A stretch of DNA of 64,000 nucleotides from an uncultured Alphaproteobacteria bacterium (GTDB lineage: Bacteria; Pseudomonadota; Alphaproteobacteria; Sphingomonadales; Sphingomonadaceae), in the NCBI GenBank assembly GCA_963779195.1, contig CAVZWZ010000008.1, forward strand, positions 431,289 through 495,288, in the 5' to 3' direction. Both the position numbers and the translations under genes were made by a program. The first letter of the stretch is position 1; each line of letters starts with the position of its first letter. The notes under the pieces are model-generated. The model saw nothing but the letters and a program-made list of their open reading frames with translations, ran no database searches and was not told where the DNA came from. This document shows positions 28,980 through 35,660 of this stretch, one piece after another.

Positions 28980-29211
28980 GGGGTTCTCACCTCGTTCCAG
29001 CTTTAAACGAAATGAGGTTTCCGTTGAAAGTGGCATGCGAGGGCCTACGCCCTCGCGCTCCCCGGAGTTTGGGGAATTTTGCACATTGCACCATAATCTC
29101 AGGATTGCCGCAAGGTTTGCTAGTCGTTCAAATGACACCTAACTTTGAATAAAGATTAAGGGACTTATATACATGCTTGACCCAATCCGGGGGGCGTGCT
29201 AATCAGACTGC

Positions 29212-30141
29212 ATGAGCAAGGAAACCGCCATGCAGCACTTCGACACCATCCTTCAGATGATGGCAGCCATCCCCGATGAGCAAGCCGCAATTGACCATTT
29301 CACGGCGATCCGCTGGAAGAATGGCGCGTTCTGCCCGCACTGCAAATCCACCCGCGTCTATCACTTCTCTGACAACCGCACCCACAAGTGCGGCGATTGC
29401 CGCAAGCGCTTCTCGATCAAGGTTGGCACCATTTTCGAGGACAGCAAAATCCCGATGCGTTCATGGATGCTGGCGATCTGGCTGATTACGTCGCACAAGA
29501 AGGGCATCGCCAGCACCCAGCTCGCCAAGGACATCGGCGTCACCCAGAAGACGGCGTGGTTCATGACCCACCGGCTGCGCTATGCGATCAAGACGCAGTC
29601 GTTCAATCGCCCGCTGGATGGCATTGTAGAAGCCGACGAAATGTTCGTGGGCGGTAAGGAAAAGAACAAGCACGCGTGGCAGCGCACAGGCGGCAAGCAG
29701 GGCGGCAAGGGTAAGGTCGCCGTCCTTGGGATGCTGGAACGCGAAGGTGAGCTTCGCACTGGCACCACGCCAAATTTGAGCGCCAAGGCTGTTCAGACCG
29801 TCATCCGCGACAACGTGAAAACCGGCGCTGCGGTGATGACCGACGAGCATGGTGCGTTCCTCGGCCTGCAAGGCGACTACAATCACCACCGCGTGAACCA
29901 CACCGCTGGCGAATATGTCCGCCATTATGTCCTGCACACGAATGGCATTGAGAGTGTTTGGGCGCTGTTCAAACGCCAGATCGTCGGCACCCACCACTTC
30001 CTTTCGCCCAAGCATTTGAACGCTTACCTTGGCGAAATGACATGGCGCTTCAATCTGCGCGAAATGGGCGAAGGCGACCGTGTGAACGCCCTTCTCGCGC
30101 AGACCGCCGGAAGGCTGACCCACAAGGCGCTCAAGGCATGA
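29212..30141 (+). CDS. IS1595 family transposase
   Basis: Zn ribbon CPHC...CGDC, GTIFEDS, VEADEMFVGG, MTDEH, HTNGIESVW, YLGEMTWRFN. Confidence 0.97.
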   Translation: MSKETAMQHFDTILQMMAAIPDEQAAIDHFTAIRWKNGAFCPHCKSTRVYHFSDNRTHKCGDCRKRFSIKVGTIFEDSKIPMRSWMLAIWLITSHKKGIASTQLAKDIGVTQKTAWFMTHRLRYAIKTQSFNRPLDGIVEADEMFVGGKEKNKHAWQRTGGKQGGKGKVAVLGMLEREGELRTGTTPNLSAKAVQTVIRDNVKTGAAVMTDEHGAFLGLQGDYNHHRVNHTAGEYVRHYVLHTNGIESVWALFKRQIVGTHHFLSPKHLNAYLGEMTWRFNLREMGEGDRVNALLAQTAGRLTHKALKA

Positions 30142-30311
30142 CCGAGAAGCGAGAGAAGCCCTTGGGGCTGGATATGCCATTTGCGGAAGCGCTCGAACGA
30201 TTCATCGGGGTTGACCCTGCGGAGTTGCCCGAGAACGTGAAACTGAAACGAAAAAAGCCCCCGCCGAAGCGAGGGCCAGGTGTTGCTGGGAAGGCTAGCC
30301 CGAAGGTCTAG
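30138..30311 (+). CDS. small IS passenger protein coupled to the transposase
   Basis: ATGA overlap; MTEKREKPLGLDMPFAEALERFIGVDPAEL...basic tail (57 aa). Confidence 0.7.
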   Translation: MTEKREKPLGLDMPFAEALERFIGVDPAELPENVKLKRKKPPPKRGPGVAGKASPKV

Positions 30312-30389
30312 CTACTTGTGGCGGAAGTGTGCCCGGACGTGTTCGACGCGTCCGAAGCGGATGCGATAATAAGCCTGGATATAGACCAT
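30312..30389 (-). CDS. 25-aa Arg/His/aromatic-rich small protein
   Basis: GGAGGG RBS 4 nt before ATG; MVYIQAYYRIRFGRVEHVRAHFRHK*; stop abuts the stop of the convergent passenger gene. Confidence 0.55.
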   Translation of the reverse strand: MVYIQAYYRIRFGRVEHVRAHFRHK

Positions 30390-30506
30390 CTGGCCCTCCA
30401 TCGTATGATGTGGGTTGCATCCGGTGGCCGATGGTGCGACAAAGTGGTTGCACAGATCGGTCGCTTCGGCACCGGTTCGGAGGCCGCCCCAACGGGCGGC
30501 CTTTTG
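30334..30506 (+). ncRNA. candidate structured RNA inside the IS, antisense to the 25-aa ORF
   Basis: Stems at 30334-30354, 30358-30423 and 30421-30475; G-U wobbles in three helices fit the + strand only; ends in an intrinsic terminator. Confidence 0.45.
30481..30506 (+). terminator. intrinsic terminator
   Basis: AGGCCGCCC-CAAC-GGGCGGCCT followed by TTT and GTTTC. Confidence 0.75.
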
Positions 30507-30641
30507 CGTTTCTGGCTAGATCATGGTCCCATGTGACGCTCCATCGGTTGCCCGGCGTTCCGGGTTGATGGAGAGATTCTGGCATGATTCGCGGTGCTTG
30601 TCAGACAGGATTGGGGACTGGTTCACTCTGGTGGGGGAAAT

Positions 30642-31319
30642 TTAATCCCCGCCCAAATTTCCCCTATTTTCGTTAAGGAATTTGAATAAGTTAGATGCCA
30701 TTGGCTTGAGGGTGGAATCGCCGTAATTTTCCCCCAGCGTGTTCCCGATGTAATCCTCTAGAATTGTCTGCAATTCCGCCTGATTTTTCGGGTTTAGCGT
30801 GCCAGCTTGAATACGGCGGATCATCTCGATCCACAGGTGATCCCACCAGTCCTTGCGCTTTGCGCCCCGGCGTTGGTTCTGGCCGTTGTCAGGGACTGGC
30901 TGGGATGCTGGATTTTGCGAAGCTTTGGCGGGCAGCATCGCGTGGATACCTTCTGGATCGAAGCGGACGCTAAACAGGGACAGCATTAGCCTGTCGTCAC
31001 CATACCCTGTCGTCCCGCCACCGCTGATCGCAACATCGCCTGTTTTCCAAAAATCACGGTTATAGCCGGGCGCCCAATACTTGGCCAAAAACTCGTGCTT
31101 TAGGACTACATACTCCATGCGCTCACCTTCCGGTGTGACAACATGACGCGCCATTGTTTCAACTAGTCCGCTATGCATCCGTGCGCCGATGGCCTTCACG
31201 GTGGTATCCCATTGCCATCCTTGCTCAAGGAAAAGCGCGACCGCTTCCGGAGGCGGAATCCACCCGGTATACTTGGCCGCCAGTGCAGCTGTTATTTCGC
31301 TCGAATCGTCCCCTGCCAT
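30642..31319 (-). CDS. hypothetical IS passenger protein, possible C-terminal DNA-binding domain
   Basis: 225-aa lower-GC ORF starting just inside the right TIR; C-terminal RRGAKRKDWWDHLWIEMIRRI helical region. Confidence 0.7.
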   Translation of the reverse strand: MAGDDSSEITAALAAKYTGWIPPPEAVALFLEQGWQWDTTVKAIGARMHSGLVETMARHVVTPEGERMEYVVLKHEFLAKYWAPGYNRDFWKTGDVAISGGGTTGYGDDRLMLSLFSVRFDPEGIHAMLPAKASQNPASQPVPDNGQNQRRGAKRKDWWDHLWIEMIRRIQAGTLNPKNQAELQTILEDYIGNTLGENYGDSTLKPMASNLFKFLNENRGNLGGD

Positions 31320-31389
31320 CGCCCCATTCTGCCGAATTTCGGCAATGGGTCAAACTGGTATATAGGCCCCAAGATTAAGGGGGCTCCCA

Positions 31390-33198
31390 ATGCGAATAAA
31401 GGGATTTTCGGTCACAGATTTTCCGCCAATTCAAAGTTTTTCTGTAATAGGTGTATCCGATCTTATCGTAATCGCCGGACCAAATGGCGTCGGAAAGTCG
31501 CGATTGGCGACTGCCCTTTTACAGAGCTTCCGATCTCAAACACCTAATACGTCGATCCAAGTTGAAGCAACCAATGACTCTGAAAGAGAGATTTTTCAGA
31601 ACAGGACAATTTCAACTTCTATCGAAAATGATTTTCAGATACTGGCGTCGCTCCTCCAACAGAATAAGCGGCGGAGAAATTTCGCAAGCAGCGTATTGTA
31701 TTATGAGAGTTCTCGATCAATTCAAAAAGTTCAGCCTCTAACGTTCTCGTTTGAATATGCAGATCCTTGGGATGAAATGGTTTCATGGGACCAGACGATG
31801 CAAGGCCTTTCAGGCAGGTGGATGGACACACAGCACGCAATCTTCAAAAAAATTCATACCCAGCGGACATCCCTCGGTAATCGAGCCCAACAACTCAGAG
31901 CCGAAGGCAAGAGCTCGATGAATCTCGAGTTCGATGATCCACTGACAATGTTTAAAGAAGCTTTCCACAAGCTGCTGGCACCAAAAGCTCTTGTGAAGGC
32001 CGATTTGCAATCTCAGCATTTGATCTATGAGGAAAATGGTCAGGAGCTGAACATTGACAATCTCAGCAGTGGCGAGAAAGAAGTTGTTCGCATTTGCTTT
32101 GATTTCATTCTCAGATGGCCATCAGATTGCATCGTCGTTTTCGACGAACCCGAAATCCACCTGCACCCTGAATTGCTTATCCGAATGATCAACACCCTGC
32201 GATCTGTGGGATCGAGGAACCAGTTTGTGCTTCTGTCGCATTCTCCAGACCTGATTAGCACATCACTTGACGATACCGTCGTTTTCCTAACGCCACGCAA
32301 GCCTGACGGTTCAAATCAGGCTGTAGTGGTTGATTCGAGCAGCGAAACTTCAGCGGCCCTTCATGCACTGGGTCAATCCATCGGCGTTCTTTCGTTGGGA
32401 CGTAAGATCGTCATCGTTGAGGGAAATGACGCAAGCCTTGACAAGAAAACCTACGGCGAGTTGCTTCAAAATCAATTTCCGGACCTTGTTCTCGTTCCTG
32501 CAGGTGGTCGAGGTCGGATTGAAGGCTTTCAGGCAACAATTAGCCACCTTCTGGACAAGTCTGTTTGGGGGGTGTCGTTCTTTCTGTATACGGACCTCGA
32601 CGCCAGCGTCGGGCCCAGTTCAAAATCTGCCAGCGAAGCGAATGTGCGCCGGCTCAATCGATATCATCTTGAAAATTACTTTCTCGATTCGGCACTCCTA
32701 GCAAGTTGTTTCGTAGATATGGAACCGCCAGAAAGTTGGCTGCGAGACGGTTTGCAGATTTAAAAGAAACTGCTTGCGATAGCGAGGGCGCAGCTAGGCT
32801 ATGTGACAGCTCTTACGATAAGCAGGACTCTTCGGCAGCGCTTCGGCAATATCGATGTCATGCCAAGGGGCGCGCACAATATGTCACTTGATGACTTGAA
32901 GCTCCAAATTGGTCTTGCTCGACACGCTGAGTTTGATCGGTTTCAGGAATTGATGGATGAAGCGTTATTGATGGCCCTCATCGAGGAAACCTATCAGCGC
33001 TACGATTCCATGACGACTTCGGGCGGCTCAGAGTGGGTTTCACATTTTCCAGGAAAGCCTATTTTTTCCGCATTCTGCGGCCAAGCCAACATTTCGCCGG
33101 GGAGACTCAAATCCCTTTACATCAAGAAAGGCTTGGACACGAACCCGAGTCCCTTCGAGGATATCATCGCCAATTTCAAATATTTTGCTGAATTATAG
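31390..33198 (+). pseudogene. ABC-type ATPase fused to a TOPRIM/DUF4435-like nuclease (OLD/PARIS-like), in-frame TAA at 32761-32763
   Basis: GPNGVGKS, LSSGEKE, VFDEPEIHLHP, LSHS; IVEGNDASLD, TDLD, RYHLENYF; ORF 32803-33198 is in the same frame with no other stop in between. Confidence 0.8.

Positions 33199-33621: not shown

Positions 33622-35660
<2,039 letters not shown>

Follow-up and report, generated by a model that had tools for sequence, protein, structure and literature searches.

What is encoded by positions 30312 to 30506 of the window (the whole stretch of 64,000 nucleotides analyzed here)? The segment lies inside an insertion sequence, and the initial annotation proposed that it hides a module in which one structured plus-strand RNA runs antisense to a minus-strand gene for a 25-residue basic peptide. 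We favor a related reading, to which we assign a probability of roughly 0.4: the segment would belong to a self-contained mobile cassette that combines a folded microprotein mRNA, an antisense RNA directed at its leader, and a growth-inhibiting, nucleic-acid-binding effector acting near replication. The two-RNA architecture by itself is probable, and, given that architecture, a toxin-like effect has about even odds. Such a cassette may represent a replication-directed switch that is widespread and undescribed, and the promoters, RNA ends, mini-ORF, and clamp tail predicted here allow every step to be tested directly by means of short constructs.

The microprotein gene and its carrier element

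The gene and the element around it are laid out as follows.

29152-29159 and 31371-31378: 8-bp target duplication of the IS1595 element
29160-29184 and 31346-31370: 25-nt terminal inverted repeats of the element
29160..31370, no strand: intact IS1595 element carrying the cassette, bounded by the inverted repeats and target duplication
29212..30141, plus: IS1595 transposase, 309 aa (NF033547, E 3e-61; PF12762, PF12760)
30138..30311, plus: 57-aa ORF that follows the transposase and converges on the peptide gene; of no family, kept in related elements
30312..30389, minus: ORF of the 25-aa basic microprotein, MVYIQAYYRIRFGRVEHVRAHFRHK (PHROG 21154 family; beta-hairpin predicted)
30642..31319, minus: 225-aa passenger gene, with no Pfam, NCBIfam, or PHROG family

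The minus-strand ORF that the initial annotation had read is indeed present inside an intact element, its GGAGGG Shine-Dalgarno sequence (30399-30394) lying 4 nt 5' of the AUG. Its product is rich in Arg, His, and aromatic residues and ends in HFRHK. Nine close homologs (group A) give a pN/pS ratio of 0.19, and 18 distant homologs (group B) give 0.26; when only codons free of the search pattern are counted, the values are 0.19 and 0.49, respectively. His21 and Arg23, both outside the search pattern, are retained in 46 of 47 loci, although homologs are mutually related and counts across them are not independent. As judged from this conservation at the sequence level, the microprotein gene is real and under purifying selection.

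The window peptide is matched by the profile of PHROG 21154 (E 2.5e-8, profile positions 20-42 of 47), a family of unknown function that includes H0092 of phage VT2-Sakai. The cassette peptide is thus the same protein family, for which neither function, RNA control, nor a clamp motif is recorded in the sources searched. No match to the window microprotein was found in Pfam, NCBIfam, or PADLOC, and PDB sequence and Foldseek searches returned nothing at an E of ≤0.001. AlphaFold2 predicts a beta-hairpin for a 38-aa homolog (mean pLDDT, 87). Profile searches gave 299 near-length proteins and 701 representatives of 50% identity clusters at an E of ≤0.001, and scans with a sequence pattern located the microprotein at 108 viral and 39 genome loci. 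Within the class, 10 of 401 genomes have relatives (three of them weak), and within the order, 12 of 401 do; relatives also lie on chromosomes and on enterobacterial plasmids, and the homologs of lambdoid phages are placed between cI and pL/N. Hundreds of microprotein sequence clusters lie below annotation cutoffs in mobile elements, lambdoid immunity regions included. Lambda orf28 was considered as a homolog and rejected, the motif being absent from the lambda stretch searched. No description of the family was found in the literature searched, which did not extend to papers behind subscription, supplements on bioRxiv, or catalogues of small proteins (e.g., the sORFdb tables); any of these may list the family unnamed.

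Longer proteins with the motif are mostly N-terminal mis-extensions or frameshift fusions, together with three phage-type proteins ending in it. In P0018, P0020, P0021, and P0143, the hairpin motif stands at the end of larger phage-type proteins, and a protein of 1840 aa contains six repeats; this occurrence suggests a portable nucleic-acid-binding module. Two microprotein gene copies lie side by side in L102 (1468-1581 and 1758-1877) and in L225. In L050, a tailed homolog on the opposite strand sits between terminase-like and portal-like genes (judged by eye), possibly within a gene-transfer-agent cluster. Genes for ImmA/IrrE-type HTH-peptidases precede the homologs on the same strand in L044 (189-1292) and L104; the former matches RmrA in PADLOC (E 4e-65), and the latter was judged by eye.

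An indirect hint of expression comes from E. coli Sakai, in which XECs114, an out-of-frame ORF on the same strand, shares the last 53 nt of the homolog (PMC5597208). Its RNA RPKM values are 452, 807, and 235 (S2 Table of the same source), and its translation ratios are 0.30, 0.09, and 0.01, against means of 1.55, 0.55, and 0.12 for short annotated genes (S2 Table and Table 1). The authors' classifier placed XECs114 in the class "pseudo," and these tables cannot assign reads to a frame. Among sequencing runs, no RNA dataset containing the sequence was listed, which counts neither for nor against expression.

The initial annotation also took the module to be linked to IS1595. We surveyed 80 transposase relatives from metagenomes, 70 of which have at least 500 nt downstream. 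The microprotein is present in 5 of these 70, always behind the transposase and on the opposite strand, and in 0 of 54 upstream regions; the other relatives hold unrelated passengers. Conversely, among 40 distinct loci selected by the peptide, a close convergent transposase is found in 17, and many loci are not in IS elements at all. By this distribution, the cassette is a passenger and not an IS1595 trait, being neither IS1595-wide nor IS1595-confined, and the special link is not supported. The carrier has all features of its family (zinc-ribbon DDE transposase, inverted repeats, and 8-bp duplication) and is a single copy in the genome. Like other IS1595 elements with passengers, it has ~25-nt repeats and carries its passengers downstream of the transposase; the passenger here is distinct in being a microprotein cassette with predicted RNA regulation. 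Homologs of the 225-aa passenger gene precede the cassette in the nine closest elements, and the window microprotein gene lies downstream of it.

RNA structure and promoters on the two strands

The following RNA-level features were predicted on either strand.

30576..30604, minus: predicted promoter of the peptide mRNA, CTGACA-17-TG-CAGAAT, from a promoter scan, with a start at ~30569 and a similar site in homologs
30521..30532, minus: mini upstream ORF, Met-Gly-Pro-stop, with its own GGAG at 30542-30539
30358..30423, minus: leader-to-ORF stem (30423-30417 pairs with 30364-30358) enclosing the Shine-Dalgarno sequence and AUG; ribosome site predicted to be occluded
30250..30277, minus: intrinsic terminator of the peptide mRNA with a UUCG loop and U run, from a terminator scan
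30415..30443, plus: predicted antisense promoter, TTGCAT, 17 nt, TGC-GACAAA, with a weak -10 in the window copy
30450..30506, plus: putative cis-antisense RNA of ~57 nt, comprising a stem-loop and terminator and complementary to the mRNA leader
30479..30505, plus: terminator hairpin and U run, conserved in homologs

All plus-strand stems named by the initial annotation appear in the plus-strand minimum free energy fold (z -4.33, reached by 0 of 200 shuffles), the second and third overlapping at 30421-30423, but the minus strand also folds well (z -3.17, 0 of 200), as does the mRNA from ~30569 to 30250 (z -2.99). The claim that G-U wobbles work only on the plus strand is valid for this copy but not across group A, in which G-U cells number 5 on the minus strand versus 1 on the plus strand in the leader-to-ORF stem and 7 versus 5 in the ORF hairpin. 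In the terminator after the peptide, they number 14 versus 0, and three pairs are compensated. The long leader hairpin of group B emerges on the mRNA strand only, and, together with the terminator, it shows 44 double-change cells, a count inflated by relatedness, versus 14 after shuffling (0 of 500) and 2 to 10 in slid controls. Built from group B alone, a covariance model picks out the minus-strand leader of the window (30392-30530, E 8e-4) and recovers six of the eight other group A leaders. From the strand-wise wobble counts, the group B hairpin, and the covariance model, most of the structure ascribed to the plus strand is more convincingly that of the mRNA.

Across the genomes searched, the leader model gave 19 weak matches, only one of which lies beside a peptide gene and has the promoter pattern; a leader without a peptide is not established, since the other 18 resemble ordinary terminators. 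The mini upstream ORF is found in all nine members of group A (Met-Gly/Asp-Pro-stop) and all 18 of group B (two to four codons), where shuffling gives expectations of 0.2 and 1.3, in search windows picked after the alignments had been viewed. Ribosome sites of the peptide genes are more occluded than those of their neighbors (median, 12.3 versus 10.2 kcal/mol; 78 versus 78; p 2e-4), the peptide site being the more occluded in 32 of 54 paired loci; the difference is modest. The minus-strand terminator directly behind the peptide (30277-30250), the mini-ORF, and the promoter-like signal on the plus strand had no place in the initial annotation.

No Rfam family reached its gathering score in the window or in 29 homologous loci (tRNAs or weak matches only). 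The best Rfam candidate for the window, SorY, was rejected at 24 bits against a gathering score of 111. Between the peptide stop and the terminator (30278-30311), groups A and B share a small hairpin and a conserved CAACAC motif. A second class of structured leader, ~140 nt upstream of the peptide, occurs in mostly tail-bearing homologs (L200, L203, L204, L205, L050, L071, L077, L081, L085, L090, L039, and L080). It has a pyrimidine-rich stretch at the 5' side that, judged by eye, complements the ribosome site, and a GNRA-like hairpin, followed by a covarying small hairpin before the Shine-Dalgarno sequence; a scan of one member, L080, gave no match in Rfam.

In the core of the final hairpin (30481-30502), group A has 0 G-U cells on the minus strand and 6 on the plus strand, and in the 18 distant homologs, one-sided changes are kept as plus-strand G-U pairs. 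The hairpin has only four U residues and was not called by the terminator scan. It is retained also where no convergent gene exists. These substitution patterns indicate that it is a true plus-strand terminator, as the initial annotation had held. The RNA that ends there appears to be far shorter than the one proposed to span 30312-30506: its predicted start lies near 30450, which would make it antisense to the leader only and not to the ORF.

The promoter for this RNA is suggested by a TTG that precedes a -10 of the (TGC)GA type by exactly 17 nt in all 34 loci examined, drawn from the 40 distinct ones; 16 of the 34 have the TTG outside the Shine-Dalgarno context. Distant homologs have near-consensus TA..T -10 boxes at the same place. 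The window's own site is weak (p 0.49 versus shuffles, G at -12). Among 45 other non-redundant loci, 17 reach p ≤0.1 on the antisense strand versus 4 on the sense strand (Wilcoxon p, 0.005 versus 0.76); the set underlying this enrichment kept 78 of 145 records after short, weak-start, and redundant ones were dropped, and it includes five loci previously seen by eye. A notable antisense promoter is absent from the remaining 28 of the 45 and from 8 of 12 further loci tested with a narrow pattern, among tailed relatives, and antisense control is accordingly not family-wide. Many tailed relatives without the promoter have the second leader type.

In group B, the predicted antisense RNA would be about 70 to 76 nt long. 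Its sequence complements the leader hairpin's 5' arm. In 25 of 33 loci, the 5' portion of this RNA gives a better fold than the mRNA-strand reading of the identical DNA, with z falling below -1.5 in only 8 of the 33 (window z 0.2, not above shuffles). Blocking its target in silico closed the ribosome site beyond both controls in 12 of 16 group B loci, two loci being left out (mean, +2.3 kcal/mol versus +0.4 and 0.0 for the control blocks). The corresponding values for group A are +0.8 versus +0.6 kcal/mol, with -0.1 in the window. Taken together, a ~57-nt antisense RNA directed against the leader is a likely prediction from these signals.

By sequence comparison, the microprotein is under purifying selection, and conservation extends to the leader hairpin, the mini-ORF, and the terminators of both strands, several of them with compensatory changes; pairing and reading frame, which the initial annotation had singled out for comparison among homologs, are both kept (pN/pS, 0.19 to 0.26). 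We propose that the mRNA would run from ~30569 to 30250 and the antisense RNA from ~30450 to 30506, both promoters and ends being predicted. The ribosome site of the peptide would be buried in the leader-to-ORF stem, keeping the protein normally off, and the mini upstream ORF may serve as the ribosome entry point. Antisense pairing would take away the 5' arm of the leader hairpin and create a duplex of ~57 bp open to RNase III. Since the block in group A does not go beyond the control, one would have to assume there that the duplex is cleaved or that ribosome entry through the mini-ORF is lost. Once released, the microprotein would probably serve as an effector that binds nucleic acid close to DNA replication and inhibits growth.

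The clamp-type tail and alternative readings

The proposed site of action is suggested by the C termini of relatives. We searched for the clamp-binding motif Q-aliphatic-x-[L/M]-[F/L] or its six-residue version, as defined in PMC11139829. A tail of this type is present in 29 of 95 distinct peptides (10 canonical and 19 with Phe at position 4) and in 41 of 144 representatives (15 canonical and 26 Phe-4 variants), and in none of the 37 alpha-type peptides, the window copy included. One tailed homolog modeled with the E. coli clamp scored 0.70, with a best control of 0.00, its tail sitting in the canonical pocket at His175/Met362. The mark used is reached by 116 of 157 solved pairs and 2 of 215 mismatched pairs, with runs agreeing in at least 68% of contacts and a partner pLDDT of at least 40; this outcome may stem from resemblance to clamp-peptide structures already solved. 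No confident contact involved the hairpin core. Relatives ending in QLxLF or QLxFxF are predicted to bind the sliding clamp. For a basic hairpin that would often be tethered to the clamp in this way, binding to DNA or a replisome surface seems most plausible, and tight RNA gating on mobile elements suggests that the freed microprotein would harm the host. A non-toxic regulatory role may apply instead.

Such a role can be accommodated in the same two-RNA layout. The microprotein would then be a non-toxic regulator, for example, an antirepressor or cofactor of neighboring DNA-binding genes, and the antisense promoter would be an attenuated promoter directed toward a divergent gene. The upstream neighbors at 40 distinct alphaproteobacterial-type loci fall into three recurring families (9, 20, and 3 members), two of them divergent and helix-turn-helix-like by eye, and the position of the lambdoid homologs in the immunity region points the same way. 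The three partner families are, however, unrelated to one another, none of seven independently found genes of the largest family lies near a microprotein gene, and such a partner accompanies only 6 of 52 viral loci, so that the link is loose; in the window, moreover, the partner lies upstream on the same strand, where read-through would be antisense to it. We consider this regulator rather unlikely. Another possibility dispenses with a functional short antisense RNA: mRNA structure would control the peptide by mini-ORF coupling, processing, or hairpin feedback on the leader, and the opposite-strand hairpin would merely insulate. This fits with the window group, where intrinsic occlusion is strong (mean, 13.8 kcal/mol) and the antisense block changes nothing, and with the weak -10 with its G at -12 and the existence of a second leader class with 5'-to-RBS pairing. 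In addition, in 18 homologs the TCGCA also builds the leader hairpin, and CAAGG is Shine-Dalgarno context. Control by the mRNA alone is nonetheless hard to reconcile with a 17-nt spacing that stays exact in 34 of 34 loci although stem lengths vary, with -10 boxes near consensus at the same place in distant homologs, and with a terminator conserved where no gene converges; we regard it as unlikely.

Transcription of the transposase may also reach the peptide gene. The 3' tail of the transposase-ORF2 message would then extend through it to 30506 as the long plus-strand RNA of the initial annotation, and transposition gene expression would silence the peptide. No plus-strand terminator was called between the transposase and 30481, the plus-strand fold is strong (z -4.33), and a convergent transposase is close in 17 of the 40 loci, but wobble counts over the ORF and leader point to the minus strand, and other loci have the same leader and terminator without a convergent transposase. 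This is quite improbable; such a long RNA could coexist with the short antisense RNA. Finally, the microprotein would be an accessory transposition factor if it bridged the replication clamp and the IS1595 transposase. Clamp binding is reported for transposases of many IS families, and in IS1595 carriers, the gene always has the same position and strand. With the peptide in so few IS1595 relatives, unrelated passengers in the others, and no clamp tail on IS-borne alpha-type peptides, we hold this to be very improbable.

Relation to known systems and neighboring genes

The antisense-gated toxin-like cassette that we prefer is closest to type I toxin-antitoxin loci. Among these, a hydrophobic membrane-spanning toxin is usual but not universal, SymE being an exception. 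With hok/mok/sok, ldr/rdl, tisB/istR, and symE/symR, the cassette shares an ORF of <60 aa, a long folded mRNA with its own terminator, an upstream ORF, an antisense RNA opposite the 5' leader (here predicted), and carriage on mobile elements. Its protein differs in being soluble, basic, and predicted to be beta-hairpin-like, and it has no sequence relation to known toxins in Pfam, NCBIfam, or PADLOC. Type I toxins are typically described as hydrophobic (PMC2887945). We do not file the cassette as a type I member because this feature fails and because toxicity and the antisense RNA are predictions; the best reading is a type I-like system whose effector is soluble, binds nucleic acid, and acts near replication. 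Of the initial proposal of a type I-like unit, the layout, the real small basic protein, the covarying RNA structure, and a plus-strand transcript with its end at ~30506 are supported, while the single long RNA antisense to the ORF is not.

P1 c4/icd/ant, P4 CI/kil, and Gifsy-1 isrK/orf45 are antisense-controlled phage antirepressor or kil loci. The cassette shares with them a small antisense RNA on a structured leader (here predicted), a small upstream ORF, and a location in prophage regulatory regions; it has no Rfam match (window and 29 homologous loci) and no downstream coupled antirepressor gene, its mRNA stopping right after the peptide. Caulobacter SocB, a clamp-targeting inhibitor, is controlled by a protein adaptor. 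Compared with clamp-targeting ligands, cassette relatives likewise have QLxLF or QLxFxF at their ends and fit the canonical pocket of the clamp in the model, but they are peptides of only 25 to 45 aa without a catalytic domain, have Phe-4 in two-thirds of tails, and lack the tail in the window copy. Phage Twort Gp168, by comparison, binds the DNA channel of the clamp (PMC11139829).

If the preferred reading is true, mobile DNA has a common, tightly RNA-gated route by which a tiny protein touches host replication, and the cassette adds, for alphaproteobacteria, a candidate type I-like system whose effector is not a membrane protein. It is a more doubtful proposal that soluble microproteins of 25 to 45 aa, with a basic beta-hairpin and an optional clamp tail, form an overlooked large family of RNA-controlled toxin or replication-arrest modules on IS elements, prophages, and plasmids, and that they would be the first class of antisense-controlled toxins to target the replication fork and not the membrane.

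Several observations concern adjoining genes. One neighbor family, of 240 to 330 aa and starting RSPxYP (L152:2893-3672 and 19 homologs), is divergent from the cassette in group B and helix-turn-helix-like by eye; it has no Pfam or PDB match and was found in 6 of 301 class genomes. A similar neighbor in L161 is DUF5343, a domain on which no paper was found. Outside the element, thiC (33622-35606, minus) is apparently split across two overlapping ORFs in different frames, which reflects either a frameshift or an assembly error. A gene for a 457-aa ATPase (31390-32763, plus), whose best PADLOC match is PARIS AriAB (E 7e-52), starts 19 nt past the IS end, and the insertion may alter the expression of this adjoining defense gene.
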